Assembly: GCA_973895155.1 (NCBI GenBank)
Contig: OZ316891.1
Span: 13,981,037 to 14,045,036 of the forward strand
Length of the DNA stretch: 64,000 nt
Origin: Marsupella aquatica
Taxonomy: Eukaryota > Plantae > Marchantiophyta
Direction: 5' to 3'
Numbering within the stretch: position 1 is the first letter of the stretch; every line of letters starts with the position of its first letter. Under the pieces are notes generated by a model, which was not told the origin of the DNA, made no database searches, and worked only from the letters and a program-made list of their open reading frames with translations. The position numbers were made by a program, and so were the translations under genes. Of the stretch, positions 7,001 to 64,000 are shown in pieces.

Positions 7001-9569
7001 TTTTATTATACGAGCCCGTCATCAGATTGAATCACTTGACGTAAATTCCATTTCGATCCTCTTTGGTCGTGACATGGTTTGGTTTTCTTTACAGGCTTGC
7101 TAAGGAGACCGACATCGTGGCTTCTCTGGAGCAACATCTTCTGATCAATTGTGGGTCTGCGCTTGCTCTAGAAGCCACCTTGAGGCAGTTTATCTCATTG
7201 TATGCCGGTGCCAAAGATGCCATCAAGGATTTGGATACAGCTTGGAGTGCAGAGGCTGAAAACATCCTAGAGGTGGTGGTAGGGCGCTCAAACTGCCGTG
7301 ATCTATTATGTAGTGAGACACCAAAGCCCGTCCTGAAATGGTTCCTACGAAAAGAATCATTGAAGGGCTTGATCATGGTGCAACTCTTGACTTGGTTCAC
7401 TGCTGTCCAGAATAAATGCTTTGGAGATGGACCGCACGAGACGAATTCGTCAGCATCATCAATGGTTTGCAAAGAGGAAACTGGGTCCGAGTTTCTGGAA
7501 AAGTTGGCTGAGCTGATTGGGAATGAAGATTGTGGTACAACTGTGCTAGTATCTCTGTTTGATACTCTAGTCGTGCAGGGAAAATATGATGACATTAAAA
7601 TCTTTGCCCAAACTTTCACACAACTTGCACGTATGAGCGTGCCTGTGGGACATAAGCTCATTCAGCATGGACTCGTAAGCACCTTGCAGCAAATGATATG
7701 TACTTATCCTTCCAAGACGACAGACTGTTGTCTCACATCTTGCTTGGAGCTTCTTTTTCAGCTGCTGTATGACTCAGACTCTTCCTATGAGATGATGTCT
7801 AGTAGATCGTGGCGTGACATTGCTAATCAGGTGAGTGAAGTGACGATCGTTTTTCATCAATCTGCGTCTTATTCTTTCTCCTCAGCTCCTCCTTTTACAA
7901 CAGATTTCAATCAAATCTGAGGCCGGAGTCACACAGAAATTGGAAGTCCGGTACACTGCCGTGCTTACTCATTTCCCTTCAGAATTTCCTCCACATGTTG
8001 TCAAACAGATCTGCAAGCCAAACTGACTCAGCGCCAGTGATATTTTGCAGTGTGCAACTCTTGTTCTGCGAAGGAAGAGTTCTGGCATCACTTTTGAAGT
8101 TGTGGCTCCTCTCAGTCTTATCAACTTAATCTTACAAAAGTCATATGAGAACGACTTCTTCACACAAGCGTGTGAAAAACTAGTTTGCAACAGCGATTTG
8201 TGTACAAAACTGGAGGCACCAATTCTAGAGGCATCGTCACAAGGTGCGAAACTGTCTCAGATGGACTCAAAATCAGTCGAAGAAGAGCTACTGTGCGCCG
8301 CCATTATCTTCTGTCTATTGAGGTTGAGATGGTAAGACTTGCATGTATTCAATGTTTTTACAAAGCATTCATCGGACTTCTAAACAGATATAGGTGCATC
8401 CGTTCGTGGCGAAATTCAAACGTTGATTAATGTATTTCCTTTTGTAGTGCACTCCGGTTCGAGAACCAAATGGATAACCTGGCTGAAGAGAAACAGTGCT
8501 TTGGCTTGAACTCAATAGTCAATGGAGATAGTCATCCCAACGGGTGGAGCTTATCCAGAACCTCGCTAACTTGCGAGCACTGGTGCAGAGTGTTGTACTT
8601 CGGTCCTCCTTCCCTGAAGACCCTGGCATGCTGTTGCATAGCAGAGATGATTTCACAGCTTCCGGATAGTTCGAAGTCAACAATAAATAATTTCGTTGTA
8701 TTTAAAGAGTGTGACATGCCACCTAGTTTCTTAATGGCAGTAACAATGGTTCTTCAGGGTTCTATCTTGGGGGACTGTGAACGGCTGCAGAAGGTGGCAA
8801 GCTGCTGCTTATCTCGACTCCTACGCAGCCATTCTCTCAGTTTACAACAAAAACACTCGATTGCAAGCAGTCCATGGAATCAGTTGTTGCTTGAGAATCT
8901 AGTCTTGTCGCTCTCATCCTCGAAGTTGAAGCAGAACTCAGGAGCAATCAGATCTCGCGCAAGTTTCTCCGCGGCATACGTTGCCGTGGGGTTGTTAAAG
9001 ATGCCTCAGCCTCAATCCTACCTATCTTCTCTCTTTTCAGAAGAGTCGATCACCCGTATCATTTCTAACCTGTGTGAAGCTGACATCTCCGCGATGATTG
9101 TTTCATTTTTCCATGAACTTCTGCTCTCGCGATATCTTACAAATGACCATGTACGAATTTTGCGGGATTTGTTTCAAGTAAGACACAACTTCCAGACTTC
9201 TTAACATTGAACGGCAGATTAGATTCTCATTATATCAGGTATGTACACACGCACTGTCTCTGATGTTCATTGTTCAATCATATATTGCAGGCAACCAGGA
9301 AGAAAACTTATGACACAGAAAGATCCTTGCATCCGGGAAACAGACAGAGCAAGTCCAGATTTGTTCGCAGTAAGATTTTAAACGTAGTTCATACTACTAA
9401 CCACATCATTCACTCTGCCATTATGGAACTGGCAATAACCTGCAGAGATGAAGCTCTCGAAACTCTCATTAATGATGGTGGTGATGCGAAAGCATTGCAC
9501 GTAGAATCGGGTGCTTTCACGTCTTTGCTCGACACATTCATGCAGGACAGTTACAATTATCCAGATTAG
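3606..9569 (+). CDS. PRD1: PUTATIVE RECOMBINATION INITIATION DEFECT 1 (PRD1/MEI1-like meiotic DSB factor), 9 exons: join(3606..4052,4371..4489,4841..4998,5178..5477,5822..6815,7095..7830,8051..8331,8448..9177,9291..9569), about 1347 aa
   Basis: All 8 introns are GT-AG with consistent phases, giving one open frame of 4044 nt. Peptides align co-linearly with Arabidopsis PRD1 as I recall it: CGNGHRPSLSL..GGRICLLCVSNLIS, LQLPGEE, LLKTESDSLRINCIALL, FAEAMKASLLSTDLEVQ, EEGIVDYVFEIIR, SYSFNDRLAKETDIVASLEQH, CRVLYFGPPSLKTLA. Confidence 0.93.
4371..4489 (+). CDS. PRD1: PRD1 exon 2
   Basis: gtgacag|CTA...CCAGG|gtac; encodes LRLIGLLL...LQLP. Confidence 0.85.
4841..4998 (+). CDS. PRD1: PRD1 exon 3
   Basis: atacag|T GAA GAA...ATT G|gtac; encodes EELEEDIFYVLFKIS...LRINCI. 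Confidence 0.88.
5178..5477 (+). CDS. PRD1: PRD1 exon 4
   Basis: tttgcag|CT...TCA G|gttc; encodes FAEAMKASLLSTD. Confidence 0.88.
5822..6815 (+). CDS. PRD1: PRD1 exon 5
   Basis: ttttgcag|GG...GAC AG|gtga; lies within ORF 5785-6819. Confidence 0.9.
7095..7830 (+). CDS. PRD1: PRD1 exon 6
   Basis: ctttacag|G CTT GCT...CAG|gtgagt. Confidence 0.9.
8051..8331 (+). CDS. PRD1: PRD1 exon 7
   Basis: ttttgcag|TGT...AGA TG|gtaag; the upstream AG at 7981-82 leads to a stop. Confidence 0.82.
8448..9177 (+). CDS. PRD1: PRD1 exon 8
   Basis: tttgtag|T GCA...CAA|gtaag. Confidence 0.88.
9291..9569 (+). CDS. PRD1: PRD1 exon 9 (terminal)
   Basis: attgcag|GCA ACC AGG AAG...TAG. Confidence 0.85.
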   Translation, partial: ATRKKTYDTERSLHPGNRQSKSRFVRSKILNVVHTTNHIIHSAIMELAITCRDEALETLINDGGDAKALHVESGAFTSLLDTFMQDSYNYPD

Positions 9570-19205: not shown

Positions 19206-20352
19206 CAGTCGCAGAACTTGACTACCTTAACACTTAGGTCGGGCATTGCTGACTCTGACACCGAGCTCCTCTATGGTCCAAGCCCGGAATGGCCATCTGG
19301 TGAGGACTTAGCATGGGGACACTTGTGAGAAATGAGGCGTTGCACTGGCAAAGGCAAGACGTTAAGCTGGTGACGCAAACTAAGGACTTAGACTAGTTGG
19401 GGGCTGGTCGCGTCATGGGAAAGGGCCGGACTCAAGGTTGACCGTCCAGACCCCTGGATGGACTTTGAGTTCTGAGGACTTGAGTGAGAACTCCTCTTGG
19501 GCCCAAGGCTAATGGAGTTTACTTCATGCACAATGGACGCTTGGGGCATGAGATATGGCCCAGCCAAGGTGTGGCCGTCCGAGGATGACGGGTTCTGAGG
19601 GCCTAGGCATGAGCACTAAGTTGGCCCGATCACAACGGGCTAAGGCACTCTGCCTATGGACACCTAACTATAAAGTTATGGGCATAGCCAGTTGGTGGCG
19701 TGCCCAGGTGTGGGGGTTGGGGTCTAGGTGGGGGGCCAAAATATGGGGACCAAAGTTGGTCTGGGGGTGGAAAGTATCCAAAAGCATATATGAGGGGAGT
19801 GATGTCTCCCTAGGTTGTGAGTTGAGCGAGAACCATGAGTTGGTTGCTAGAGTTGAGCCATTCTGGTCTCGACATTTTAGGACAAGCTATGCTATTTGGG
19901 CCATGGGGATGTTCTGGGGGCAGGGCGGTCAACTGTGACGGAAAGGTATGTGGGGCAGCCCGGGTTGTATCCAAAGAGGGATTGTTTTGGATAAATAGTG
20001 AGTGTTGGTTCTGGCTTCGGCTTATGGCAAGGCCATGCGGGCCAGGGAGGACCTATTGCTGACCTATTTACCAATGCTTGTTGAGCTTGAGTTAGCACGC
20101 TAGACTTGGGAGATCTAGATCCTTTTGGGGTTATTTACCGGAGTGCTTGGTGGCTTGTGCAGACTATGAGGGTCGTTGAGCGACAGTCGTGTTAGGGAGC
20201 AAGTGCAACTTTGTATGGAAGGGGCCGCCCGGGGGTGCAAGGGGCATCAAGTTGCTTGCTCAAGGAGTTCCATGGAGGCGTTCGGGCACCATGGGCACTT
20301 AGGCGTGGGTGTTGGGATTGGTGAGGGCGCTGGATGGCAAGGTCCACCACTA
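19206..20352 (-). mobile_element. Non-autonomous TIR element family, copy A (TSD TAA)
   Basis: Ends CAGTCGCAGAACTTG ... CAAGGTCCACCACTA, with TAA on both flanks; reverse-complement homologous to copies B and C. Confidence 0.85.
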
Positions 20353-20905: not shown

Positions 20906-22212
20906 CAGTGGTGGACCTTGCCACCCAACGCCCTCACCAATCCCTAAGTGCCCCTGGTGCCTGAACGCCTCTACGGAATACCTTGATCAAGCAACCTGGT
21001 GCCCCTTACACCGAATGCGGCCCCTCCCATAAAAAGTTGCACTTGCTCTCCAACACGACCGCTACTCAACGGCCCGGGGTCCTCACTTCTTTTCTTCCGA
21101 CCCATCACGCGTGAATAAGTATAGGGTTTTTTATTGGGTTTAGTGAAATACTTTTAAATTTTTGTTGAAGAACATTAGGGTTATTTTAATCCAATTTTGA
21201 GAATTATAAGAATCATAGGGTTTTTTAAATCAAATATGGGAATATTCCATTAAGTTAGGGGTTAACAAATTCCTAAAAAAAACTTTATTGACTTAACTTT
21301 TAGGGTGTTTATTCCCCCAAAACTTTGAGCGTGATATGAGACACCCCTTGGATTGAGGCCCCCAAGCTCAACGGTCCTCACTGTTTGCACAAGCAACCAA
21401 GCATCTTGGTAAGTAACCCTTTAGGATCTAGATCCCCTAAGTCTAGCATCCTAACTCAAGCTCAACAGACATTGGTAAGTAGCTCATCGATAGATCCTCC
21501 CGATGCCATAAGTCGGAACCAAAATTGACGTCCACTATTTGTCAAGATTAGCTCCTTCCTTGGGCACAGCTCGGGTTCCCCCTCGTACCTATTCATCACC
21601 AGCTTACCCCCAAGACATGCTCATGGCCCAAATAGCGTAGCTTGTCCTAAGCTTGTCCCAACATGTTGGGACCATAATGATCCTGACTATAGCAACCAAC
21701 TCCCGTTTCTCACCCCACTTATGGTCTAGGGGCCAAGTGCCCTTGGAACTCAACTTCCACGTCTACTTGGCCTTGCCTCCCCAATGCAAGCTCCCTTGTG
21801 AGACTGAACGCGGCTTGGCTGCTATTTCGACAGGATTTGGCAAGCGGGCAAGATAGTCCCCGCAAACCCAGATCCAGCTGAGCTCAAGAGGATGTAGTCA
21901 TCCTTGAGAGATTTCCTATGCACCCAAGAATTCCTCCAACGGACTTCCCGTTGGGAAGTTATCGTCGTTTCCATTTGACATTTTCCCTTAGTGTCGCGAC
22001 CGCCGTAGCTCATGACTTTGGCTCGCCCTTAGCCCCTAGGGAGACACCACTCTCCTCATATATACTTTGCCAGTGCCACACCCCATTGTCCACAAGTCTC
22101 CCCATGCTAAGTCCTCCCCGGATGGCCTATCCGGGCCTGGACCATAAGGGAGCTTGGCGTCGGAGTCAGCGACGCCAGAGCTAAGTGTTAAGGTAGTCAA
22201 CTTCCGCAACTC
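20906..22212 (+). mobile_element. Non-autonomous TIR element family, copy B (TSD CAT), with a nested insert at 21076-21366
   Basis: Ends CAGTGGTGGACCTTG ... CAACTTCCGCAACTC, with CAT on both flanks; co-linear with copy C. Confidence 0.85.
21076..21366. mobile_element. AT-rich insert of about 290 bp nested in copy B
   Basis: Absent from copies A and C; short inverted ends GGGGTCCTCA / TGAGGCCCCC; flanked by duplicated ctcaacgg(c/t)cc; contains several degenerate TAGGG motifs. Confidence 0.6.
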
Positions 22213-45238: not shown

Positions 45239-46713
45239 TTTTTCTATTTTGCTGGTGACATAATAGAAAACGCTTTATATGAGAGAAAATGATAATGTGC
45301 AAAATCTCATAATTTTATCTAGGTTGCAAGCACTCTATCGCGCCATTTTAGACGAGGTTCTATTTGCCTACACATGGGAAATTGAAGAGGCCACTTGGTA
45401 CTCGAGTCTGATGAGTACAGTACAATATCCAAGTTCTACAGACGCAAGTATGTCACATTCATAAATTGCTCCAACTGCAAAGGTAGAGATAATCCGGCAT
45501 TTTCCCGCACCAAAAATGTGACACCTTTCAATACAGGGGAGGGTTTCTCGTCATTATTTTGTAGTAACACAACTTTGAAGGGAGTCGCCTTTTGCATTGT
45601 GCACCCAATAATGCGTATGTTTGATGTGAAGGAGGAGTAGGTAGGACTTGTCTGATCAAGTTGATAATTTCCTTACCATGTTCCTTATCAAGTTCTGATC
45701 AAGTTCATTGTAAGGAAATGATGGACTTGTCTGATCAAGTTGATCAATGGACAATTTCAGTTTACTCCATGAAAAGAATGTCTGAAAGAAAGGGAAGAAA
45801 GGTATGTTTGGTCAATTTCACCTTGTGAGAACTCACAGTCTGATAATGCTATGTAATGGCTGTCAAACAATATACGTGATGATGTAATGTAATCTAACTA
45901 TGTAATGGCAATCAAATGCTAACTCTATGTAAAGAATGAGCACTCAGACTAGTGTCTGTCAGTAGTGAAATGCCTAATTGCCTTAGTACTACTATACATA
46001 GCAACTCAAATGCGTCACAAACTCACAATGTTGGGCTCATTACAATTTATACACCTAATAAGTAGTGTCTCGATCAATTAGCGTCGTTAATTACGCGGCA
46101 AATAATCATCGTTCACTTCCACTCTTCCAGCCCGGCGCCAAGCCTGGACTCACCAGCAGTATCTCTCTCGCAGTCTCGCTCGACTCTCGGGCCCCGGCGC
46201 CCCAGGCGGCCGACCCGGCCCCTGTCGAGTGTCGACTGCCTCGTCCGTCCCTGTTGGTTGCCCGGCTTGCCTTTGCCTTGCCTTGGCTTCCATGCCGGGA
46301 TCTGGCCTTGTCCCGATTGGCCCTGCATGCCCCTTCGCGGAGGTACAACGGTATTACGGTCCCTGTCTGCCTTCGTTGCCCCGATACACTACTGTAGTTA
46401 GTAGCTGAGTAGTAGTAGTATTTCTATACGGTGTGGAGCAGCAGCGAGCAGGAGGGACATGACAGGACCGGACCGGACCGGACCAGCGCTGGTGAGTTCT
46501 GCCCCGCCTGACCTGGCCTGGCGTGCAGGGAGACAGGTAAAAGCGGGCCCGCCACGGGCCTCAGTTAGAGCATCACATCACGTTCATGGCAGGCTGAAGG
46601 TCTCTTTGGCAGCACTCTTCCTTATGCTGCGGCGCGTCTTCTCATCATCATCATCATTACCCGGTGTTGGGTATACCGCAGCAGAGCAGCACTCCATAGA
46701 AGACCATTTAGAG

Positions 46714-47269
46714 ATGCAGCCGGGCACGTTGCCGGGCTCTCGAGGGCCATCTCCGGGTGCAGCAGCAGCAGCAGCAGTTGTAGCAGTAGGAAGCAGCAGC
46801 AGCAACGGAAGCAGTAGTGGTCGCGCAGGCGCATCGACACACATTCAACAAGCCATGCCTTCACTCCTGAGCCCCCCTCAGCAGCAGCACCATCAGTCCT
46901 CCGCGCTGCAATTCGAGCAGGCGGAGCATTCTGCTCCTCCAGCTATGGACGAATTCCTGGACCAAATGTTCTCGCTGCCTTCTTGGAACGACATGGGGGC
47001 AAGTGGTGGCAGTAATGCGGGACGGGCTCCCTGGGAGTACAATGCAGTGGGAGCTGCGGCAGCCACCCGCTTGGGTGTCGATGCTCAGAAGCTCTTCACA
47101 ATGTCGCTGCTCCCCACTGGATTACTGGGATCGCAGCACACCCGAGACCTGCAAGATGGGGGGCCTGATAGTGCTCACGTGGGTGACAGCGTGATCTATG
47201 CAAACGATGATAATCTCCTTAGCGGTCCTCGTGTGCGCGGCCTGCAAGACAATTCTTCGCCAGCTTCAG
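46714..47269 (+). CDS. LRL: LRL exon 1
   Basis: MQPG...[13 protein letters not shown]; donor TCAG|gtact. Confidence 0.8.
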
Positions 47270-50200
47270 GTACTACTGTCAATTTGCTCCCAGTTTTGCC
47301 AAAGGCATGGCAACGATGGATCTTCTATCGATGGGGCCAAAGGGTCAGAGAGTAGAAAGGCAGGCAGGAACTCAGGCGCACTTGTCAGACCTAGAATGAA
47401 GGAATGATGGAGAATTTCAAAGGGTGGGCTGGGGAGAGAGGGGTAGGGGGGTACTAGGGGGTGTCCTCTTGCATTGTCCAGCCGCCGCATTCTTTGTATA
47501 ATTCAGGAGAGTCTGTGTTAGTTGCATCCGTCATGGGCATGCTTTGCAATGCAAGTCGCTAACTAGCAGATTCCAGGTATTGGATCGCGAGGAGCAGGAA
47601 CAGGAGCAGGAGGAGCGACGACTCTCACGAGATCTCCGTCGGTAGGAAGCAGTGGAAGTGAGGGGTCAGGTGGTCCTCAGTCGCCACCACCCATTGCTCC
47701 CACATGGAGACAACCTTATGTTGGTGGAGTGCCACCATTGCCGTTGGGTCTAGGTCAGGCCAAGCCAGAATCTCTTATCCGTGGAGACTCAGGCGAGGCC
47801 CATCTTCTTGGGAAAAGGTCTCGAGACGATGACGAGGTTTCCATGAGAGAAACGCACTCCGGAAACAATGTGAGTGCTTGGGAACCCGCCTTGGTTTCAA
47901 TTCACTCAGACTGCGCAATAGGAAGAACTATGACGGTATCTGTTACAGTTGCTCACTTTTGACTGTGTTGAGCTGAAAATTTGTTTGCGAGAAGTACTGA
48001 TGTCTTCCATGTCTAACATAGAGAGGCATTTCCTCTCAACGCAGCTTCGTGAGGGGCCCCAAGGTCTCTTCGCCTCTTTCGCAGGCGCCCAAATAGCTCA
48101 GACACAAGTGCCTCGCGCCGCTGGCCAACCATCCCATCAACAGGTAGGAATTACTTACACCGTGCGCGGACTTTATCATATCTAACTCGTTGAGGATGTT
48201 GAGGAAAGGGAACATTTAATATAGAAGTGCCAAACATAGGAGGTGGCCGAGTCGAATATGCAATGATTATATGCTGCTGCCTACTTCTTGTTTCGTAGGG
48301 AAATGGCGGATCTTCGCAAGGAGTTCAGGCAGGACAAGCCGTTCCTGTAGTTTATGGAAGTCAGGCCGTTATTGCCCAACCACAAGCAGGGTCTGGCGTT
48401 GCTGCCATATCTGCCCGACCCCGAGTGCGGGCACGGCGCGGCCAAGCTACCGATCCACACAGCATTGCTGAGAGGGTAAGTCTATCAGGTTGCATTCTTA
48501 TCTGCGTTCGTCTCGTGGATCATTTAGCCATCATGTCAAGGTATTAGAGTGACGTCTGACCTGTTTCCGAGTCACTACCTTCACGTTTCTGGACTTAATC
48601 TATAAACTGTCACCCCGCTGTCATCAAACGCCTTCTTCTGCACCCTTTAGCTGTTCATCGAGCCACTGGCCGGCGGCCTTCTCGTTGTGCGCATTTTCGA
48701 CAGTTTGAAAATATGTTCATCGGGGCTTCTTATGTCGTGATTTGCAGCTTCGCCGAGAGAGGATAGCGGAGAGGATGAAGGCCTTACAAGAACTGGTTCC
48801 GAACTCCAACAAGGTAAAGTACTCATAGCTGTTGTTATCATTCTCTCGTAGCCCGGATGAGGATTCACGGTAGCCGAATGCATCATCGCATCAGATCAAT
48901 GTGTGCGTCGTCCTAGAAATTCAGATGTGAGCAGATCGATCTTTCAGGTTTGTACCCATCAAGGTACATCACAGTGATGCACAGCAATGCTACGGTATAC
49001 AGGGTCAGGTAGGGTTTGTTTGTTCCATGCAAGGGGGAGGGGGATATTAGTGACCTGTAAGGGCGGACCCGTAATTCGCGGTACATTAGGAAATCTGACA
49101 ACTGGGCGTCAGCTGTAAATAAGGACATCCAGCTCGTCTGCCGCAGGACAACATGTGGTTGGCAACCTGAGACTCGCAGGCAAATGCGGACATCAAGAAT
49201 TTCGTCGCTCCAGTATGAGCATCAGATTGCAGCTCGGGTCATGCAGTAGTCATGTCCAGGACGTTCGTCGAGGAACCACTACTCACTGGTCGTTGAAAAG
49301 TGAATAGTCACCACGCACTTTCAGACTCTGGTCAGATGTGCATTCAGCCATCGTACTGAGGAAACGTACTCATCGTCAAATCCATTTTCCCTAGTGCTAT
49401 CGAGATAGTCAAATCTGGCAGGGATCCAGGTTGTCACCAATCAGGGCCGGAAAATTTAAGTGGAATGGAAGGTGGGTTTCGTGAGTGGCTACAGAAACAG
49501 CTTGCGGGATTTGCCAAGTCTAGAAGTTGGCGCGATAAATACCGAGTTCATATCAGTCTCTAAATTGTTGGTCACGTCGTGGATAAAACTGCCGATTTTG
49601 ATTGCAAACAGCTCGCGACCTACCGCGGACGAGTGCACAGTCGGGCAAGTCGCGTACAGGATAGGAATTTGAGAGAAGATCAAGTCCTTCGAAAGCTAGC
49701 CGATGGGGATTGGAGCAACTTTGGAAGTTGGAACGACTTGATCGACGATTGGGAAATGTTATATTCTGTTGGGGCGATCGAACCTAATATTACCGTATCT
49801 GGTGCATAAGTCTACTTGATCTCCCCATACGTGTCATACAGGTACCTTAGTTACGTTAGGGATCTATCTGATCATTACTCGTAGTGTAGGATCCGTACAC
49901 GACTCGCCGCAAGACAAGTAAATGCGACCTGGTCTAATTCTACGGAAATTCTACGGAGGCAATGAGGACGTTTTGAAGTTGCTTTGTTGTGGTTGTGGTC
50001 GAAGCCGAGACGGATTGATTTGATCTGAGCCCTCGTCTGTGGGAGCTCAGGTACTGAAATTGAACTTGTCGCTATTTTACAGACTGATAAAGCGTCAATG
50101 TTAGATGAGATCATCGATTACGTGAAATTCTTGCAATTGCAAGTCAAGGTAAACCTTTGTCACTCTCGTTAGGTAGTTGATGTGGTGGGACTTTCAGTTA

Positions 50201-51006
50201 TTTTCTCGTAACAAGTGAATGCCTGACAGTGTATCAATGGCTCCGTCATTACAATTTATCCAGCCAATTGATTTGTCTCTCACCACGGCTCTCTCTGAAT
50301 GTGCCTACCAGGTTTTGAGCATGAGTAGATTGGGCGGTGCTGGTGCTGTAGCACCATTAGTAGCAGATCTCCCGTCTGAGGTAGTGGTACACTGGACATA
50401 TGTCCCTTTTGCCCAATGTTTGCATTCTAATTTTATCGGCATCGACATGTCCAGCCAGGATCTCTCCTTTTTCTGATCGGGAAATGATTGTGATGATTCC
50501 AGGGTCCAAGCAATTATGTGACAGCGACAATGGGTCGCACCAACGGTGGCCCAGGCCCTAGTCAAGATGGACTGGCGTTGACGGAGCGACAGGTAGCTCG
50601 ACTTATGGAGGAAGATATGGGGTCGGCCATGCAGTACTTACAAAGCAAGGGACTTTGCCTTATGCCGATATCTCTAGCTACAGCGATCTCTAGCACTAAC
50701 TCCCGATCTCAAGGTGGAAATCACGGTGTGCAAGGCTCGGGTGAAAGGCAGCGCTCGGAAGCCCCAGCGGGGGCTGCAGCTGGTATCAACAGCATTGCTT
50801 CCTTCACAGGTGGTTCCCCATCCGCCTCTGGTGCCATTGACGGCGACAGTGCAAACAAATCTGGCAACGGCGCCCCTAAGAACGCGATTAAGGATAATAG
50901 AGATGCAATCGCCGAAAAGACAAGTGGAGGTTCCTCGTCCAAGCAATCACCCAAATCCAAGACTCAATTCAAGGGCAAGGAAGAATCCCAAAGACGAAGT
51001 CAATAG
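46714..51006 (+). CDS. LRL: LRL (LOTUS JAPONICUS ROOTHAIRLESS1-LIKE) subfamily XI bHLH transcription factor, 8 exons: join(46714..47269,47577..47869,48045..48143,48299..48475,48748..48813,50083..50148,50312..50380,50503..51006), about 609 aa
   Basis: The spliced product contains the LRL bHLH ([81 protein letters not shown]), the C-terminal LRL domain ([37 protein letters not shown]) and the N-terminal [13 protein letters not shown] motif. All introns are GT-AG and in phase. The start codon is uncertain (in-frame ATGs also at 46459 and 46624). Confidence 0.95.
47577..47869 (+). CDS. LRL: LRL exon 2
   Basis: ttccag|GT ATT...AAT|gtgagt; the only nearby acceptor that keeps the frame. Confidence 0.75.
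48045..48143 (+). CDS. LRL: LRL exon 3
   Basis: acgcag|CTT...CAG|gtagg, 99 nt. Confidence 0.8.
48299..48475 (+). CDS. LRL: LRL exon 4 (basic region)
   Basis: Encodes [20 protein letters not shown], followed by donor gtaag. Confidence 0.93.
48748..48813 (+). CDS. LRL: LRL exon 5 (helix 1-loop)
   Basis: Encodes [22 protein letters not shown]. Confidence 0.95.
50083..50148 (+). CDS. LRL: LRL exon 6 (helix 2)
   Basis: Encodes [22 protein letters not shown]. Confidence 0.95.
50312..50380 (+). CDS. LRL: LRL exon 7
   Basis: Encodes [23 protein letters not shown]. Confidence 0.93.
50503..51006 (+). CDS. LRL: LRL exon 8 (LRL domain, terminal)
   Basis: Encodes [24 protein letters not shown]; TAG at 51004-51006. 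Confidence 0.92.
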
Positions 51007-54000
51007 CCCCTAAGGAGTCCAATGAAAATCATCTGCCTCGATTCCAAGAAGTGACTTGAGGACCCGGAGAAGGAAGCTATGTACGTACACCCCAGACTTG
51101 GTCAATCCTTGTAAGTTGACAAGTGAATGGATCGAACGAGATGGCAGTGGAGATTCCTACATTGGTATGGGATGGAATGGGATGTGGCCGCTTGCACATG
51201 TAGCTCTGCTCAGGAAGCTCGTCGGCATGTGGATTCGACTGTATCAATGGAGTAAGTTGGATATAAGCTACATATTCAGAGTTGGCAGACATTCGAGCTA
51301 GCCAGGGTGTGCAACGTTGGGACAGCTACTATTGACTGGTATTCCAAAACCACCCCGCCTTTTCCTCTGGCAGAAAAGCTTCTCCAACGTGCAAAAATTC
51401 ATTCAGAACCATCAGGAAGTTCGTACATTATTTCGACAGCACCTTTGAGGGAAGACGAAAACATCCGTTCACTGAAATACGACAAGGGACTGACTTCCAA
51501 CCACCTCTGCTACTCTTCTTTCTTCAACCTACATAGCTACTACCATTGCTGTAGTGGCTGCAGCAGCTCTGCCGTGTAACTACACCCAACATACGATTCT
51601 CGCTGTCTGCTTTCCTTGAAACTCTGAAACGCCACCCCACCCGCCGAGCGAAAAAGCTCACGGGCAAGAGGCATCGGCTGCTTTAATTTTAAAAGAATTG
51701 GATCGCTCTCCTTTTTCACAGCAATCGAACAACTTTTTGTTCACCGCTACAAGCATCAATGTCATCCTTGTCTCGTTCGTTTATCTTGTGTCTGTCTGCT
51801 CCGGTTTTTAAATCGGCTTTCATGGTGCATTGAACATCAGGTTTCTTTATCTGCGAAGGCGACATGTCATTTCGTTCACGGATTCTATCTGATCTTCCCC
51901 TTCCTTCGCGACCGAGGTGCCGCCGGTTTTTCCACTGTGTAGGTCCCATTCGTCAGGGATGTGCGTCATTCGTATTTGTCGGCTTCGAATTATGACGAGT
52001 TCGTGTCGTGCACTGTCGTGGAAGTCGTGCAATGTCGTGGAACATACTCACAGTAAAATAATTACTATTATAATACTAGTAATGCGTTGACACGATTGTC
52101 ATTTTATCTGAGACGAAGGGAATTCGTAATGAAGTCAACCTCCTGCGCAGTTGATTGCGTCGAAAACCGTAGCTTGTTTAGCGCGCCGCAGTGGAGAGTA
52201 GCGGTTCTCGAACTCATTGATGAGCGAATACAGCCAAAAACTCCCAGTATTCACATCGTTGCTCGCAGTCTCCGGCCTCTCACACCGGATCGCATGCTAG
52301 CCCCCGCATCCATGATTCCCGTCGCGCACAATTAGCGTTCCTGAGCCGAAACACGCTTCACTTCCGTTGTTTGCATTAGGGGTAGATACGGTCAAGGACT
52401 CTACACTCGTGGTTCCGGGATCCAAATGCTAGACCGTCGATGATCGAAAAGCAGTTGAGTAGATCCTTGGGTTTGTAACCTCGACTCGTCCCAGCCCTCC
52501 ATCGCGAGGAGTCAGCAAAAGTGAGAATCAAGTCAATAAATGAGGCTGTCTGTCAGCCTTGCCAACTTGCTCCTATAATAATGTCTCAATCCCCTTAAAA
52601 CACGGAAGAGTCGCAATACAGTAGACCTTCTAACGATACGATTCGTGGGACCAGAGAGCCTAAGGATGGAAAGCTACTGCGCTTGTTTTTCTTGGCCCTG
52701 AAAGTTCAAATAGATTCAAAGAAAAATAGCATAAAAAGTGTGCTAATCAAACCAGGTAAGGAGGTAGTTAAATAATACATTTCACGTCTCCAGGAAAGAG
52801 CACTCTTCACTTTCAAGCTCCGACAGTGGTTCCGTTCACTGAATCTCGATGGCAGTCTACATGCTTCTAGCAAAATCCACCGTAAGCATTCGTGCTTAAA
52901 GTGCTTCAAGTTAAGAACATCTTATGTAGACACAACTCACCGCTTTGGCACGAAATAATGCTGTTCCTGCCGTCTGGACAGTCTGGCTACTGGCTGGGTC
53001 TTCGTCTGCACACGCCACCTTAATGAATTTTGTAAGCCTTCTGTCGAACATCTTTTTCTGTCGAACATCTTTTTCTGTGAAAGTCTTCTCGACATATTGT
53101 ACTTTAATTACCACCCGCCAGCCCGAGGGTACGACGCCGTTGTGTGACCTATATGTGTGTATGGCGCGCTGTGCAACGCAGACGAAAGTCCACCCCATCA
53201 TTGCCATCTGACCTTCTGCCCATGCTTCCCCCACGGCCCCCGGGAAAAAACAGTTCACAGTTAACTGAAAAGCTTCCGTTTCGAGCAACGCTAAGTCCGA
53301 GGTCCTCTGATTTCAGATTCTCTCGTGCGGTAGGCCATTTATATACAGATTGGCACACTCGGAGCACGTCCCTCGATCCCTTGGCTTCGAACTAAAATAT
53401 GTTTCACCGCGAAGCAATCAATCAATCCATTCGAGTACGCTAGACATCTGAGCTATAGGAGCTACAGGACCAAGTTAGTGGTAATGGTGCAACTGATCTT
53501 CGACTAAACCTCGTAGGGATCACATGTACAGTTGTGACATTGATTCATGCGTGTGTTTCTGATTCATAGTTCAGCGTTATGCTGAGCTCGTACGCACCCG
53601 AGTCGAATCGGTTACTTTTAATTGTTTCTGTCAATTAAGACGAAGCTCAATCATGTTAGCATGAAAGGCTCGATCCTAACGAAGCAATCAATCTCGGCTG
53701 AAATCGTGGTGACCACCACCGGCATCCTTTGTCGAACTGCGACAGACCGACAGACACAGATGACCGTGTCGAGTGTGTCGTGTCGCGTACTGAAGAGTTG
53801 GTGGCAAGCAGTACTTCCTCTTTATCATGGAATTGCAGAAGATTAACGTTCTAGCTTCTCGGAGAGCTCGTAAATTCGTGAGGCAAAGTGTTGAGGACTT
53901 GAGGCCGTCCGTAGTCAAAACTTTGTACGTGAGTAACGTTACGTCCCTCTTTTGCCTCCGTTCATCAAATCATGACCGACAAAGCGCGACCCGTAAAAAG

Positions 54001-55830: not shown

Positions 55831-57234
55831 TAGTGATGGACCTTGTCACCCAGTGCCCTCACCAATCCCAACACTCTCGCCTAAGTGCCCTTGGAGTTTG
55901 GACGCCTACACAGAATACCTTGAGCAAACAACTTGGTACCTCTAGCACCTCCGACGATAACTCCCATACGAAGCCGCACTTGCTCCCTAACTCAACTGTA
56001 GCTCAACGGTCCTCACAATCTGTGCAAGCAACCAAACACTTAGGTAAGTAACCCGTAGGATCTAGGAACTCCAAGACTAGTGCCTCAACTCAAACTCAAC
56101 AGACTTCGTAAGTAGGTCCGCGTCTAGAGCCTCCCGTGCCCGCGTGGCCTTGCCATAAGCCAAAGTCCAAGCCTACACCCAATGTTTGTCCAGAACAGCT
56201 CCTCTTTGGGTGCCGCCCATGCTTCCTCACTTCCTATTTGTTAGTGGCTGACCACCCTACCTCCAAGACATTCTCATGGCCCAAATAGCTAGCTTGTCCC
56301 AAAGCTTACAGTCCTAAGCTTGTCCAAAAACATTGAGACCAAATTGGCCCCGACTAGTAACAAACTCCAAGGTTCCCACTCAACCAAGAGTCTAGGTGGC
56401 CAAGTGCACTTGGAACTCAACCTCCATGCCTACTCTACATTGCCTCCCCAATGCAAGCTCCCATGGGAAACTAAACGCGGCTTGGCAGCTATTTCGGCAG
56501 GATTTGGCCAACGGGCAAGATAGCCCCCGCAAACCCTAAGAACCAATGGCACCCATCTAAGCTCAATAAGGACATAGTCTTCCTCAAGATTTTTCCAACG
56601 CATGCAAGAAGTCCTCCAACAGAATTCTCTGTCAAGAAGTTATCATCATTTTTGTTTTGCGTAAGTTTCTCCTTAGTGTTGCAAACCACAACGGCTCACA
56701 ACTCATCCTTGGCCCCAAGGGAGACCACACTCCCCTCATATATGCTTATGGGGACCTATCACCCCGGGACCAGCTTTGGTCCCCTATATTTGGCCCTCAA
56801 CCTGGACTCCAACCCGCATGCCTAGACACTCAACTAAGTTGCTATGACCGTAACTTTCTAGCTAGACGTCTGTAAGCAAAGTGCCTTAGCCCATTATGAT
56901 TGGGCCAACCCATCGCTCATGCCTTGGCTCTCAGAACCCATCATTAGTCAGGGATCCCGGACGGCCACACCCGGGTCTCACCATATCTCATGCGCCAAAC
57001 ATCCATTGTGCCCGGCCTTTCCCATGACCAGACCAAGTCCATGCTAGTCTCATTCCTTAGTGTGAATTCCCATCTTAGCGCCTTGCTCTTGCTAGTGTAA
57101 CTAGTTTCCCAATACTTAGTCCCCATTGGATGGTCGTTCCAATGGCTTGGACCCCCGCTTGGACCATAGAGGAGCTTGGCATCGGAGTGAGCAACGCCGG
57201 AGCTAAGTGTTAGGGTAGTCAAGTTCGGCAAGTT
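55831..57234 (+). mobile_element. Non-autonomous TIR element family, copy C (most complete, 1404 bp; TSD TCT)
   Basis: Ends TAGTGATGGACCTTG ... CAAGTTCGGCAAGTT, with TCT on both flanks. Confidence 0.85.
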
Positions 57235-58208
57235 TCTTACACTCATTGCATACAGAAAAACAAAGTTGGTCTCAACCAAGACCTCGTTTGATGCATACAA
57301 GTCACCACCTATCATGAAATTTTTCCTAACTTATGTTGGAGATGTAATGTTGTCCTACAGACTGAAAATATCTCACTTATCTCAACACAACCAATATTCC
57401 AAGTCATGTGAGAACTATGGTCATTTTGACCATGACCTCTTTTACCCTCTAGAGTATCTGAAGACAGAATGTTCTAGTTTCACAAGAATTATACAATCAA
57501 GACAGTTCTCCCACCCACAAGCAAGTTCAGCTATTATTCAATTTGCCAAGTGGGTGCAAGTGTCAGACTCTGATTGCTAGCTAAGGTAGGATACAGTCGG
57601 ACATACTAAACTGGCGAAAGTAAAGGATGATTGACCAATTGGGTGACTGAACTACATGCACTTTGACCGTGGATAGAGCTGACAAAAAATCTAAGATCCT
57701 TCATGTTTTATTGTCCAAGAAGATTTGAGGAATTATATGTAAGCTGCACCAATATAAGAAGGTTTGCAATCAAACCCCAAGAGGAAGATGAAGGATGGTC
57801 GTCAATCCAAGTTTTAGGGAATCTAGCTTGGACATGTTCAAAGTATACCAATTATAGATATTTTACCAAAACTGCTTTAGGAGCAATAACAAGAAGCCTT
57901 AAGGGATGAGTCCAAGCTTTATTTCTCTTTTCAAAACTTTCTTGATATTCCAGAAAGTGTTCCAAACAAAGTGGAATGTATTTTTCAAACTAGACTTGGG
58001 AGAGTGTTACCACCAAAATATAAGCATGTTTAATATAGACAGTATCTTTTACCATGATAAATTGTGTAAACCTTGCAATATGCAGTTTATAACAGTGGCA
58101 AAAAATAACGTCATTGATCTGAGTTTATGCCAAACTCAATGTCTTACAAAATAATTATCACCCCACCTATCACCTATTAGGATCCCGGCTAGGATCCAGC
58201 GCTCTAGT

Positions 58209-60600
58209 CTAATCCAAAGGTACCACTTCCCCTTCCTTGCTTCCAAAAGTCCTTGTAGTCAATCCTGGAACAACTGCAACCCCCTCAACCACACCATCCT
58301 CTCTGGCATGATGAAAGTCCTTCTCACTCTCCTTGTCAGTATCCCCTTGTTTGTCATCCTCTTCAATGTTATCTGCAAGGATAAGAATCCTCACTTTCAA
58401 CACACAGCTCGATCTGTTGCTCATCAATCTCAATGGCAACACAATGTCTTCCCATTGCCAAGAAGGATGTTGTTCTTGTCCCTGATCCCAAACAAATATC
58501 TAGAACCCCATCATTCTCCTACTTGTCTAAAATGACTTACTTCCCAATCTAACAATACACGGGGTTTCTGATAGATATTTGTTGCCTTGTTATCCCCGTT
58601 GTGTTTCAGCTTCTTAGTCACAGTTGCGCATACAACCACATTGTTCCTTGATTCGATTGTGTCAAAGTTGAAGTGCTCCAATGAATGTTTACCATCTTGG
58701 CTATGAAAGCCAATTGCAAAACACTCAAAATTGTTGTTTAACCCTGAAAAATCACAAAAAGTTTAAGGAGTCATTAAAACTTTAGAAACATGGTTCATGA
58801 AATCATGAACATCCGGGTGAACGTACATCTAATAATTTTTTTCTCAAAAACTAAATTTTCTTACCACACACAATTCTGGACCGTACCCTTCATTACACCC
58901 TGCTTTCAAAACGTCTTGATGGCCTCATATTGGTCCAAGCTGTGGTAAATGATAATACTCCACAACTTTGCATTGGTAGCCACCTTAAGAGATTGGACCA
59001 TCTTTGTGATCTTCAAGTCCCCATCCACTGGCATCTAGCTTCATGAAGACATCCAGGCAATGCAAACTTGTAAGGAATATCCTCTAAGGCTAATGTGCAA
59101 GCCCGACATAAATATCATGCTGAGCACATCACCAAACTTTGGATGCTCAAATGCATTGGGATGAAGTCACCCTCTTGGGTTTTCCGACTAGAAGTCTTCA
59201 TGGCTAGCCAATTCTGCTCTTGAAAACAATATGCGTATTGAAATTGTCTGGGAATGACTTGAGAACTTTGCCTTCCTCATCTCCCTTCTTTTCCGGGAGG
59301 TGGTATCTTTCTGCAAAAGAGGAGCTTATAGTTAAAACCTCGGAATCCAAACATCAAATGTATTCAAACTGTCACTGAAAGAAAAAGTTAAAGAATCTTA
59401 CTCAACTCTAGAAATAGGTACAAAATTCTCTAGCACATTGTCCATGCAATGCTTGGGTACTTGATTTTGCAACCAGACCAACTCTTCTTGTGCAGACAAG
59501 TGAGGAAGGCCTTTTGCTTAGAACACTTTTGAGTGCAGAGTTCAAGATGAAGGACTTAGAGTCGGTTAAGAGGATTTTGGGGATGGAGACAACCCACTTG
59601 GAAAATGGTAAACTATGGTTGACACAGAGAAGATATGCAAGAAAGGTAATAATTACGTTCAACATGGAGGACAACAAGCCCCTTTGGCTCCACATTTCTC
59701 CGCACATTTCAAATTTTTATCGGTTTTCTACTCCACAAATGCAACAATAAATAAGCTCATGTCCCATATCCCTTAAGACAAGGCAATGGCAATCTCATAT
59801 ATTTGATGCATCTGAAATTTGCATCGTGTAAATTCATGCCCAATTTCTTGTAAAGAGAGTTCTTTAGTTAGAACTCTTTGCAACACAAGGCAAATACTGT
59901 CAGGATCTTTCAAGGCTTGTATGTGTCTCCATTCTTTCAATTTCATGTCCTCATAAGGCAGGTTGGCATCTCCAGACTTAGAGGCTTTCTTCTTGCCCTT
60001 GTCTCCTTTTTGCCCTTTGATTTCACATATTTCCAACTTGTCACAAATTTGCCTCACAAATGACCAAACATGATTTTGTCAAAATGCCAACTGAAATAGA
60101 TTATGGTTGGCATTCAAAACCTCAGCATCCTTGCGCACACCCCAATCCTTTAGATTGATTTCAATAGCGCACTCTTTCTTAAACTCCCGATTTGACAACA
60201 ACCCATTCTTCACAAAGTGTATGTGAATATAATTTACTTGTTGGATTGTTGTCATCTGTTGTCAAAATTCAGAATCAATATTATGACTCCATTCAAGGTT
60301 TCTAGCCTCCTGGACAGTCACTCAATCCTGCAAATATCCTGAATATTGTACTCTGCAAAATGCCTCACTGTTTGGGAACTACAAAGCAAGGTCTGCTTTG
60401 GCACAAGCCAAATGGTTGTCCCCAATCACATAGTAATGGTGATCAGTTTTCCTGGAAAATCAAAGGTAGCACACTCCTTGGGATCACCAAGAGGGCAAAT
60501 GGAGCTCCAAGTGGACTGGCCCCTACTACCTTAATCTATAGGGTCAACTGGGTCAAAAAATATGGTTGGATGTGTCTGACTTGGTAAATTGGCAACTCCA
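58209..60600 (-). pseudogene. Decayed ParB/Srx-like domain + beta-class N6-adenine/N4-cytosine DNA methyltransferase (N6_N4_Mtase-like) fusion gene with two apparent spliceosomal introns
   Basis: Manual minus-strand translation across stops and frameshifts. ParB-like part: YQVRHIQP..PFALLVDP..HYYVIGDNHLACAKADL..IFAGL..EARNLEWSHNIDSEF (VIGDNH at 60412-60429). MTase part: catalytic-type motif LEDIPYKF (DIPY at 59070-59081), IYQKPRVLLDW (QKP at 58562-58570) and SAM-binding VLDICLGSGT..GRHCVAIEIDEQQ (58477-58506 onward), i.e. beta motif order. Candidate introns GTAAG..TTTTGCAG at 59311-59401 and GTAAG..TTTTCAG at 58744-58864. Confidence 0.78.
59516..59808 (+). mobile_element. Ty1/copia reverse transcriptase fragment inserted in the MTase relic; inverted copy of 61869-62162
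   Basis: LLSAEFKMKDLESVKRILGME..GKLWLTQRRYARKV..FNMED.KP matches the copia RT pattern. Confidence 0.85.
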
Positions 60601-60638
60601 ACGCCTTCAATCAATCTCACCGCAGGAGGTCATGGTCT

Positions 60639-61715
60639 TAGTCACGGAACTTGACTACCCTACCACTTAGTTCCGACGTCGTTGACTCCAACATTGAGCT
60701 CCTCTATGGTCCAGGCCCTCAGAACCACCATCCAGTGGGGACTAAGTACGGGGGACTTGTGGGCAGTGAAGCGTTGCACTGTCTAGCAAAGGCGATATAT
60801 TGAGTTGGTGGCGCACATAAAGGACTTGGACTGGCATTGGGAGCTCGACGGGTCATGGGCAGGGCCGAGCTGAGGATGGATTGTCCGGTCCCCAAGATAG
60901 ACTTTGAGTTCTGAGGGCTTGAGTGAGAGATCCTCTTGGACCCAAGGCCAACAAAGTATAGTGTATGCGGAATGGATGCTTGGCACATGAGATACATTGC
61001 GGCTTGGGTGTAGCTATTCGGGACCCCCGAGTGACGATGAGTCCTAAGGGCCCAAGCATGAGCACTGTGTCGGCCCAATCACAATAGGGTAAGGCACTTT
61101 GCCCACAAACATCAAACTAGAAAGTTATGGGCCTAACAAGTTAGCTTTGTGTCCAATTGATCATATTAGTCCAGGTAGAAGACCAAAAACAGGGGACCAA
61201 AGTTGGTCCGGGGGTGGCAGGTCTCCAGAAGCATATATGAGGTGAGTGGTGTCTCCCAGTGAGCCAGAGGCGAGCCCAAGTCCTAAAGCATGGCGGTCGC
61301 GCTACTAAGAGAAATGTTAAACAAAAATGGCAATATCTTCTCAATGAGAAGTTTATTGAAGGACTTCTTGGGTGTGTTTGAAATTTCTCAAGGAAAAATA
61401 CATCCTCCTGATCTCATCTGAGTTTGAGGGTGCCTCCAGTGTTCATGGTCTGGAAAGGCTATCTTGCTCGCTTGCCGATCTTGCTAGAATAGCAACCAAG
61501 CCACATAAAGTTTTCCATGGGAGCTTGCATTGGGGAGGCAACGCAGAGTAGGCATGGATGTTAAGGTCAAAGCTCATCTTGCTTGGACTCTCGGTTGGGA
61601 TGGAGCCATAGAGATGGTTGCTAGAGTAGACTTGGTTGCTTGCAGCGTTTGGGACAAGCCCGGGGACAAGCTTTGGACAAGCTAGCTACTTGGGGCATGG
61701 GCATGTAATGGAGGC
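60639..61715 (-). mobile_element. Non-autonomous TIR element family, copy D (truncated)
   Basis: Starts TAGTCACGGAACTTGACTACC, is reverse-complement homologous to copy C, and lacks the other end. Confidence 0.82.
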
Positions 61716-61719
61716 AAGG

Positions 61720-62285
61720 CATTTTGCATCAAACAAGAGACAAAAATCAACAGTACCCTTAAGATACCTAAGAAACTACTTCACTACTTTAGAATGCACC
61801 TTCCTTGGATATGACATGAACATGCTCAACTTGTACATAACTAAGGAAAGATCAGGCCCAATGCAAGCCATCAAATATATGAGATTGTCATTGCCTTGTC
61901 GTAAGGGATATGGGACATGAGCTTATTTTTTGTTGCATTTGTGGAGTAGAAAACCGATAAAAATTTGAAATGTGCGGAGAAATGTGGAGCCAAAGGGGCT
62001 TGTGTCCTCCATGTTGAACGTAATTATTACCTTTCTTGTATATCTTCTCTGTGTCAACCATAGTTTACCATTTTCCAAGTCCCTGGTTGTCTCCATCCCC
62101 AAAATCCTCTTAGTCGACCCAAATCTTTCATCTTAAACTCTGCACTCAAAAGTGTTCTAAGCTTAGCAATGTCAGATATATGCTTGCCACAATCATGGTA
62201 TCCTAACATTAATTGGACCGTGCTTGATGTCTAATTCTAAACTTGGGCTTTCCATTTCTTAAAAGTGGCAAAGATATTATACTAT
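61720..62285 (-). mobile_element. Internally deleted Ty1/copia pol relic (integrase + RT pieces)
   Basis: Minus strand IFATFKKWKAQV (integrase), then ..FKMKDLG..KRILGME and ..VHSKVVK*FLRYLKGTVDFCLLFD (RT C-terminus). Confidence 0.8.
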
Positions 62286-62289
62286 TAAT

Positions 62290-64000
62290 TGCTTTGGAAT
62301 CAACCAATCAACTGAAACAATGCCAAGTCTTTTGAGAACAATTTGTTCCAAGCAATGATCTAAATTTAACTTTCAATCAAAGATCAAGAGTCGGAAGATG
62401 TCTCACAATATTTTGATTGCACTTTTACAACCAAAGCATTCAATGCCATACATCATACTGGCCGTCATCAATGAAGAAATTAAGCAACACTGAATAATCT
62501 GCAATTGGCACACAAACCAAACAACAGTGAGAAAGCTCTATTGAGTTGCTCCACACAATCTTGTACTCTCAAATCCTCTCACTAAATCATGTGAGAACAT
62601 AATGTTGTAGCAATGTGTTTCTTGAGTCAAGCTAAGCCCACTGTTAACCGCCAGAGAGTTGACCTTTCGCCAAATCCGATGTCTAACCATCCAACATGTC
62701 TTCTTGTCTCATCCATTATTTGTCGTTTATTGATTAATCAATGTACTGCCTTCAACTTCATGTCTGTTTCTTGTTTTGCGTGCTACCCGGCCTTCCCGAC
62801 AATGAGGCAATGAGAACTTTTGCAGTTTCTTGAAACAGCAATCCAACCTCTACGGGCCGTTGGATTCTGCCTATCACCTGGATTGAGAGTTCTATCATGG
62901 ACTCTCAGCTAAATTCCATTTTAGTTAATCAATCAGGGCATTGTCTGACTCTCACTGGGTGCAACTGGGTGCAGACCATGTCTGTCACGTAGATTGAAGG
63001 CTAAATGTCATCTAGCCCTAAACTGATCATTTTTAAAAGATTATTTCTAAACCCCATGTGGTAGATTTCTCAATATTTGTTTCTTTTTTCTCAATTGCAC
63101 TCTTCCATTTTTCAATCAATTGTTTACATTCCCTTGGTGCATTTTGTAGTCCAAATGGAATGATCTTGAATCTAAATAAATAAGCAAAGGAGGGTTCTTT
63201 CATCTCCACTACTTTGGACCTTACACATTTTACATTACTTTGCAGAATTTTTCTCTCTCCATTCTGCCAAGATTTCTTAATTAGTTGGAATCACAATGTC
63301 AACATGTAACATGCCGCCAATTCTCCTTTAAACGGCTCCAGCCAAATCCATATGAATTGCCCATTATCAAATGTCAACATTTCTAGCCATCTTTTCAAAA
63401 TCAATTCTTTAACTTTATTTCCAATTGCATTCAAGCAACATAAGCTTTGTAATTGAATTATCCCTGCAGTTTTGCAAGTACGCCTCCCCTACATCTTTTA
63501 TTCAATGGTCTCAATCAATTTCTTTTACATGATGTTTCTTCCATGGGCTTCCATCTCTACCTCGAGGTCTAGCAATCTGGCACGACCTCTTCCTGGGCTG
63601 TCTCTCTAGCCTCTCGATCCTGGAAAGTTTGAACAACAAAAGACCTCTACTCACTCCTACCAGATTGACCTATACCCCCCATTCAGGCAGGTTCCTTTCC
63701 TGTTTACTAACTTTTTCCTGGAATTCATATCCAGTGATGCCAAACAATTTACGACCAGCTTCCTCCCACACATGGTTAACAACATCATCCTGTTTACTAA
63801 CTTGTTCCTGGACTTTATATCCATTGATGCCAAACAATTGACAACCAGCTTCCTCCCACACATCATTTACTTGCATGAAGAAATTGAACACAAACAGTCC
63901 TAAGCCAACCGGTCAACACAAGTTCTTCTCTGTTCAGCCTACCTTTCCAAGCACGTGACTAGATTTGCCGTCAAAATCTTTTGACATGGCCAGATCTAGC
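62290..64000 (-). mobile_element. Possible decayed LINE ORF2 C-terminal region
   Basis: Weak motifs RAWKGRLNREELVL and NLPEWG..VNL in partly open minus-strand frames; heavily decayed. Confidence 0.3.
63699..63871. repeat. Tandem duplication, 90 bp x2
   Basis: cctgtttactaactt.ttcctgga.tt.atatcca.tgatgccaaacaatt.ac.accagcttcctcccacacat occurs twice. Confidence 0.9.

Follow-up and report, generated by a model that had tools for sequence, protein, structure and literature searches.

Whether N6-methyladenine (6mA) or N4-methylcytosine (4mC) is present in land-plant DNA, and in what mode, is disputed, and a locus of the liverwort Marsupella aquatica raises the question of whether a mobile element of such a plant could encode its own enzyme for one of these marks. 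The locus lies in a stretch of 64 000 nucleotides (GenBank assembly GCA_973895155.1, contig OZ316891.1, forward-strand positions 13 981 037 to 14 045 036), referred to here as the window and numbered from its first letter. On its minus strand, an original prediction made from the letters alone had placed the relic of a transposon-borne gene joining a ParB-like domain to a beta-class amino-methyltransferase. The reading that we favour, with a probability of about 0.6, is that of a dead copy of a fusion gene with PH-like, ParB-like and amino-methyltransferase-like parts, likely carried as an accessory gene by a DNA transposon family that has young copies in this genome; as predicted, the intact protein would bind the palindrome TCATG-N4-CATGA in its own element and methylate adenine or cytosine there.

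Structure of the relic gene and its relatives

The minus strand between 58209 and 60634 holds a dead copy, truncated at its 5' end, of a gene with introns that encodes about 900 residues when intact. A metagenome scan gave three related loci: L001 and L002 hold nearly the whole gene (their contigs end inside the last exon) and L003 holds its 3' half. Splicing of these loci at homologous GT-AG sites yields a product of ~900 amino acids (aa). The domain order in the parent gene is a PH-like domain, a ParB-like module and a beta-class amino-methyltransferase domain (DIPY ... DxxxGSGT), in which motif IV is followed by motif I for binding S-adenosylmethionine (SAM). The following features were located in and around the relic.

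60640..61718: dispersed high-copy repeat that cuts the gene's 5' end; other copies at 19207-20352, 21365-22211 and 55831-57231; very deep in all four sequencing runs
60280..60634, minus strand: ParB/Srx-like domain, 5'-truncated, with stops and two frameshifts (YQVRHIQP, YYVIGDNH, HNID); 57-60% identity to the L001 model; predicted fold of a homologue, ParB/Srx
59808..60279, minus strand: helical region, a predicted helix-turn-helix (HTH)-like DNA-binding part and then linker helices; weak structural matches to KorB and SopB
59516..59808, plus strand: inserted inverted copia-like reverse-transcriptase fragment (source 61869-62162); 94.6% over 296 nt; RVT_2
59402..59517, minus strand: end of the long exon (QKAFL...ENFVP); the conserved part of 10 homologues stops at the same FxPxFxxW boundary
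59311..59401, minus strand: intron GTAAG...TGCAG, at a position common to L001-L003
58865..59310, minus strand: methyltransferase exon with motif IV DIPY (59070-59081, aligned with phage DPPY) and many frameshifts
58744..58864, minus strand: last intron GTAAG...TTCAG, at a position common to L001-L003
58794..58809: palindrome TTCATG-N4-CATGAA within the last intron, a candidate site for binding; all four copies agree at 12 of 15 positions
58209..58743, minus strand: last exon with QKP (58562-58570), SAM-binding motif I (58477-58506), acidic tail and stop; 60-68% identity to relatives over 58514-58741
57231..58030, plus strand: decayed convergent reading frame in pieces, possible partner gene of the element; 57785-57949 also lies under deep contigs
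55831..57231: inverted copy of the dispersed repeat, which cuts the convergent frame, as seen from repeat comparison and contig depth

The motifs of the original prediction were present (DIPY at 59070-59081, QKPRVLL at 58550-58570 and VLDICLGSGT at 58477-58506; ParB-side motifs at 60586-60563 and 60435-60412), and so were its two GTAAG..YAG introns (59401-59311 and 58864-58744, both GTAAG...CAG), whose positions match introns of L001-L003. On the minus strand DIPY (59081-59070) stands ahead of DICLGSGT (58506-58477), the beta-class order, and the relatives are alike in this. The two halves belong to one gene, because both are present, in unchanged order, in L001 and in L002. A gene with introns that combines a ParB-like part with a beta-class amino-methyltransferase is supported.

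In a frameshift-tolerant alignment, 332 of 579 aligned residues (57%) were identical between the relic and the L001 model. Decay amounts to about five stops and 14 frameshifts, as counted by the heuristic of this alignment, plus the copia-like insert. The relic begins at residue 297 of the model; the part ahead of it (~296 residues, with the PH-like domain, the linker and one more intron) is absent, the dispersed repeat having cut the gene at about 60634-60640, and a search throughout the window did not find it. Removal of 59516-59808 from the reading, as had been advised, was borne out. This segment repeats the copia-like fragment 61869-62162 (RVT_2, E=2.6e-6) in inverted orientation at 94.6% identity, it is absent from deep contigs of the family, and one deep contig from the organism's own run spans the insert site uninterrupted. 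The insert replaces about three bases of the uninterrupted form, no target-site duplication was seen there and the source is 2 kb away; it looks like filler captured in break repair.

Searched alone, the relic matched PF01555 at 20.3 bits, below the cut-off of 26.7 (E=5.8e-4), in a 43-aa fragment at 58384-58512, which is the SAM-binding end, and its ParB side had no Pfam ParB match. The domain assignments therefore rest on less-decayed relatives, which do pass PF01555; the profile test proposed with the original prediction was weak for one half of the relic and negative for the other.

The dispersed repeat was seen in at least four copies of 1.1-1.4 kb, as listed above. They are non-coding, 70-87% alike and in both orientations, and the end at 55832 is sharp in 61-80 contigs per run. 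The two flanking copies were considered as terminal repeats of the element itself and rejected, because they interrupt coding sequence and have further copies at other places in the window.

Read-through on the ParB side gave 10 proteins among 509 candidates (388-658 aa, 50-58% identity), whose conserved part stops where the first intron of the window copy starts. A profile search of 1.84 billion representatives returned 421 clusters (E up to 0.001). Twenty of the best 150 were looked up and 15 could be named, 15 of 15 being eukaryotic: Chara braunii (5), Riccia sorocarpa (4), Saccoglossus (2), Ginkgo (1), Adiantum (1), Ptychodera (1) and Exaiptasia (1). The last-exon profile added a relative in Calypogeia fissa. 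The gene models of Chara (5) and Riccia (4) are divergent and mostly truncated. Hemichordate and sea-anemone members (P0210, P0160, P0211 and P0213) have a comparable layout and have lost the aromatic residue of motif IV, and a Saccoglossus protein has an intact SAM motif; the distant member P0125 has a SAM domain of the other kind (sterile alpha motif) at its N-terminus. No close locus was found in viral contigs or, for the ParB half, in prokaryote genomes. The methyltransferase pattern matched 24 prokaryotic loci (28-39% identity) at the SAM-binding end only, and phage records gave 99 matches, all below 60% identity and some of them ParB fusions. A tree of 16 rows, with long branches and just two distant phage rows, singled out no prokaryotic donor.

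The three metagenome copies are under purifying selection. In the methyltransferase part, nonsynonymous divergence (dN) was 0.13-0.14 and synonymous divergence (dS) 1.3-2.4, with dN/dS of 0.05-0.11 in all three pairs; in the ParB part, dN was 0.15 and dS was saturated.

Domains of the protein and a candidate site

The gathering cut-off of PF01555 was exceeded by 7 of 38 long members of the family and, in a set of 13 queries, by five (the L003 exon with 36.9 bits, P0210, P0214, P0215 and P0216). The family profile matched a phage ParB-methyltransferase (98%, E=2.4e-13) over 198 columns at 26% identity, with DIPY placed on DPPY. Against the PDB, it matched DpnA (5e-14), CcrM (6e-13) and N4CMT (2e-5), with DpnA, CcrM, MboIIA and RsrI ahead of N4CMT and PvuII. 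Motif IV reads D-[IFAL]-P-Y in plants and Chara (streptophytes) and is degenerate, DTP or DVP, in animals; Asp, the second Pro and Tyr are retained, with the SAM motif, from Chara to liverworts and a fern. Judged from D-x-P-Y and the best structure-database matches (DpnA and CcrM), the base preference leans slightly to 6mA over 4mC.

The ParB fold was tested on the homologue P0001, not on the relic. Its model had a predicted local distance difference test score (pLDDT) of 64 overall and about 75-90 in most of the core. With VIA, the top eight rows were all ParB/Srx (Z 8.9-6.0; PadC at a root mean square deviation (rmsd) of 3.3 with 98 aligned) and the next row was at 4.7. Foldseek returned Noc/ParB (E 1e-4 to 8e-4), in alignments that cover the N-terminal and DNA-binding domains. 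A ParB/Srx fold is supported by these predictions. A homodimer is also predicted: its model scored 0.47 (best control 0.04), with at least 38% of contacts shared between runs and pLDDT of at least 69. Among solved homodimers, 21 of 30 microbial and 17 of 29 eukaryotic ones attained the mark for a dimer, and of the single chains none of 23 and none of 30 did so; the pass may stem from likeness to solved ParB dimers. For the N-terminal domain, a confident alpha/beta fold was predicted (pLDDT 84). Its VIA rows were PH-like at Z of at most 4.5 and Foldseek gave no match; the PH-like assignment is a weak lead.

The candidate site TCATG-N4-CATGA has three occurrences in L001, four in L002 and one each in L003 and the window segment 57200-60640. 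These nine perfect copies in 13.8 kb compare with a summed shuffle mean of 0.04, and the counts were reached by 0, 0, 0 and 2 of 200 shuffles, respectively. The rest of the window (1-57000) has one palindrome, as many as in 4 of 30 shuffles, and 412 kb of prokaryotic control loci have none. Among paired CATG with gaps of 0-15 nt in the four regions, the spacing was 4 in 11 of 15 pairs. In the last intron, the palindrome is at the same place in all four copies and is the only invariant internal block; the other shared intron (counterpart of 59311-59401) has no such block. The centre is element-specific, being CTAG in all three L001 sites and ATAT or ATTT elsewhere. Sites are found in the intron, between genes and in a neighbouring reading frame.

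Mobility of the family and rival explanations

The window stretch is contained in four sequencing runs. The relic is genomic and single-copy, since exact-match contigs at depth 21-24 cover it in run X2 and run at least 60 bases into the flanking repeat. In the same run, family contigs of about 90% identity (one of 1004 nt) had a depth of 574-621, ~25 times that of single-copy DNA, which suggests roughly 25 near-identical copies in the genome, contig depth not being the true copy number. These deep contigs are without the copia-like insert and extend 5' into the part missing from the relic; they point to a young mobile subfamily in this genome. Their indels fall within 7 nt of at least 7 of the 14 frameshift calls, the intactness of the deep copies being judged among the differences listed only. 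At 71 places a C/G of the family corresponds to T/A in the relic, versus 30 in the reverse direction (p=5.5e-5), an excess consistent with decay driven by 5-methylcytosine (5mC).

Other repeats truncate the window copy at either end, and genes of the family are flanked by opposite-strand frames. Within the convergent frame 57231-58030, a VGHT...IDQ stretch may resemble a Sola-type transposase motif, a likeness given no weight here. L002 has a divergent, low-complexity open frame of at least 230 aa (2-691, minus strand) with the palindrome within its coding sequence and no Pfam or PHROG match. In L003, a convergent frame (1780-1986, minus strand) lies downstream of the methyltransferase gene, an arrangement as in the window. 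No mutual similarity was detected among these three frames.

In the mechanism that we propose, the intact protein would dimerise via its ParB-like domain and the helices that follow would read the palindrome, the predicted recognition helix being the segment WGxRKxxxVxN. The methyltransferase would thereby be brought to its own element and might mark it with 6mA or 4mC. The benefit would most likely be a self-mark that keeps the element expressed or recognisable, offsetting silencing by host 5mC. A fuller claim, which we put forward tentatively and hold to be the less probable outcome, is that of a recently active land-plant transposon family with ParB-parS-like addressing, in which a dimer recognises the element-specific TCATG-N4-CATGA, even where it lies in the intron of the dimer's gene, and deposits 6mA or 4mC on the element. 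If true, it would be a private epigenetic layer beside host 5mC, from charophytes to gymnosperms and with relatives in animals.

Several points, besides the limits on depth and intactness given above, weigh against the favoured reading. As regards carriage by a plant transposon, the multi-copy family agrees with the original prediction, but transposase, terminal repeats and target-site duplication were not found, and the convergent frame 57231-58030 had no Pfam, PHROG or database match. The intact copies that it expected elsewhere were found in part: the family is multi-copy, with far less decayed members, but no fully intact full-length copy was read (L001 and L002 have one stop codon each and L003 is partial). 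The strict form of motif IV, [DNSH]-P-P-[YFW], which follows the PP pattern in the available text of PMC4738411, does not occur in the family, because the motif is D-[IFAL]-P-Y in streptophytes and degenerate in animal members. The ParB half had neither a Pfam ParB match nor a profile match to the phage ParB-methyltransferase. The HTH match was weak (KorB DNA-binding domain, Z 4.2, rmsd 4.0, 108 aligned; SopB, Z 3.5), and the Foldseek alignments, which take in the N-terminal and DNA-binding domains, spanned 277-311 columns at an rmsd of 10-15 Å. The palindrome was first noticed by eye in the same four sequences and then counted, for which reason its positional conservation is the stronger evidence. 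An additional TCATG-N4-CATGA lies at 53652-53663, in single-copy DNA 3.6 kb outside the element, and fits chance (4 of 30 shuffles).

Also on this side is the arginine of the GxxR motif, found in 0 of 93 G-G-x-H-x boxes, most of which read GGNHS (not counting 17 pattern matches that fell on an AGLS-type stretch of no relation). Of the 98 proteins for which context was available, 69 show an [QE][VI]R upstream. According to the available part of PMC12704722, mutation of the GxxR arginine abolishes nucleoside triphosphate binding in other ParB folds. A sliding clamp gated by cytidine triphosphate (CTP) is doubtful here because the arginine is absent, and a nucleotide-independent dimer that tethers the enzyme to its site is the likelier form.

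The gene may have been transposon cargo while its methyltransferase was catalytically dead or repurposed, leaving a protein that acts as a DNA-binding regulator only. We consider this unlikely, although no plant member seen retains the first proline of motif IV, animal members have lost its aromatic residue and DIRS1 elements carry inactive methyltransferase domains (PMC4738411, in the part available). Against a dead enzyme stand the retention of Asp, the second Pro, Tyr and the SAM motif in members as far apart as Chara, liverworts and a fern, with purifying selection, and the N-[IL]-P-Y motif of active rRNA adenine methylases. It is improbable, too, that the palindrome is recognised by a different protein of the element, such as a transposase, or that it is the target of the enzyme and not its docking site, with some other job for the ParB-like part. 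Palindromes occur in the intron, between genes and in the neighbouring frame, rather than at ends alone; their size and symmetry fit a ParB-type dimer, and a like arrangement is proposed for Bostrychia PAG3 (bioRxiv 10.1101/2025.02.11.637652, as far as its available text goes). On the other hand, the palindrome is known from four DNA copies, the GxxR arginine is missing and no database match was found for the possible partner gene.

Spliceosomal introns, strong selection and the failure to find a transposase would suit a domesticated host multigene family, like MpDN4MT1, of which the window copy would be a duplicated pseudogene outside any mobile element. This is decidedly improbable given the near-identical deep contigs alongside older decayed copies in one genome, the many divergent and mostly truncated models in Chara (5) and Riccia (4), the patchy spread that includes animals, and the algal counterparts on giant transposons (available text of PMC12477816). 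Bacterial or viral contamination, or an endogenous virus remnant, has hardly any probability left, even though the pairing of ParB and methyltransferase domains is typical of phages. The GT-AG introns are conserved, no close locus was found in viral contigs or, for the ParB half, prokaryote genomes, and the named relatives are eukaryotic throughout. Contamination, which had been raised with the original prediction, is contradicted by the exact-match contigs of single-copy depth that run into the flanking repeat.

Elsewhere in the window, an intact-looking multi-exon host gene lies at 46700-51006 (plus strand); two single exons of it had no Pfam match, and we take its last exon to encode an LRL/UNE12-type basic helix-loop-helix transcription factor. 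Another multi-exon host gene, a long one, lies at 3591-9201 (plus strand); its open frames reach 346 aa and had no Pfam match. A 90-nt tandem duplication, 89% alike, was seen at 63698-63870 in a decayed coding-like region.

Comparison with known systems

The eukaryotic beta-class amino-methyltransferases of prokaryotic type that had been named as precedents, Marchantia MpDN4MT1a/b (bioRxiv 10.1101/2021.02.12.428880) and bdelloid N4CMT (PMC8885841), are of the same general kind but not close. According to the available texts, they have an SPPY/TSPPY motif IV and are host genes that make 4mC, MpDN4MT1 without any extra domain and N4CMT with a chromodomain, whereas the present family combines DxPY with a ParB-like module and occurs in many decayed copies. 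The phage ParB-N6_N4_Mtase fusions (PMC12704722, in the part available; P0217 and P0218) share the order of ParB and then beta-class methyltransferase, with 26% identity across 198 aligned columns of the methyltransferase halves. The phage proteins, however, are of ~430 aa with GHGR and DPPY, while those of this family are of ~900 aa with introns, GGNHS, DxPY and a ParB half without sequence match. Chromosomal ParB/Noc and plasmid KorB, with their parS, NBS and OB sites, resemble the family in the predicted fold of the N-terminal domain and helices, in the predicted dimer and in a palindromic candidate site of 14-16 bp; unlike them, the family has no GxxR arginine and no ParA partner was seen, and it is methyltransferase-fused and eukaryotic.

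In the main texts searched, the family was not found described in land plants, and MpDN4MT1 was the sole prokaryote-type writer found for them; the available parts of PMC12695648, PMC13398078 and PMC9477723 hold nothing on it. In the accessible text of the algal papers, self-marking by ParB-methyltransferase cargo genes is proposed and no site is named. The window copy itself is dead; its value lies in pointing to a selected DxPY enzyme, a young subfamily and an intron-conserved palindrome. The family supplies a candidate enzyme under selection, a candidate site of 14-16 bp and a genome with apparently ~25 near-identical copies, which brings the idea of self-marking within reach of a test by long-read data that already exist and a single binding assay.

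The nearest counterparts are algal. In Ectocarpus, the available text of PMC12477816 describes an accessory protein of Sola1-1_Ec32 with a ParB-like and an N4/N6 DNA methyltransferase domain (1104 aa), on a giant transposon, for which self-marking was proposed. It has the same domain pair in one eukaryotic protein, a similar size (1104 aa versus ~900) and a role, likewise proposed, in which the protein binds and modifies the element that encodes it. The family described here differs in its distribution (land plants, Chara and invertebrates), its N-terminal PH-like domain and a defined candidate palindrome, the comparison being one of described domains, size and role. In Bostrychia, Plavaka elements carry PAG2 (PF01555 with SET) and PAG3 (ParB-like with a 2-oxoglutarate oxygenase), together with inverted-repeat arrays proposed as binding sites (bioRxiv 10.1101/2025.02.11.637652, available text). 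Amino-methyltransferase and ParB-like domains are thus transposon-borne there, as they probably are here, but in separate genes with other partners and beside tandem repeat arrays, whereas the present family has them fused, with dispersed sites of which one is in an intron. The novelty of the original prediction was overstated, the same architecture and the self-marking idea having been published for algal transposons (PMC12477816, in its available text). What is new is a land-plant member of an already known kind of transposon accessory protein, to which a candidate target site is added.

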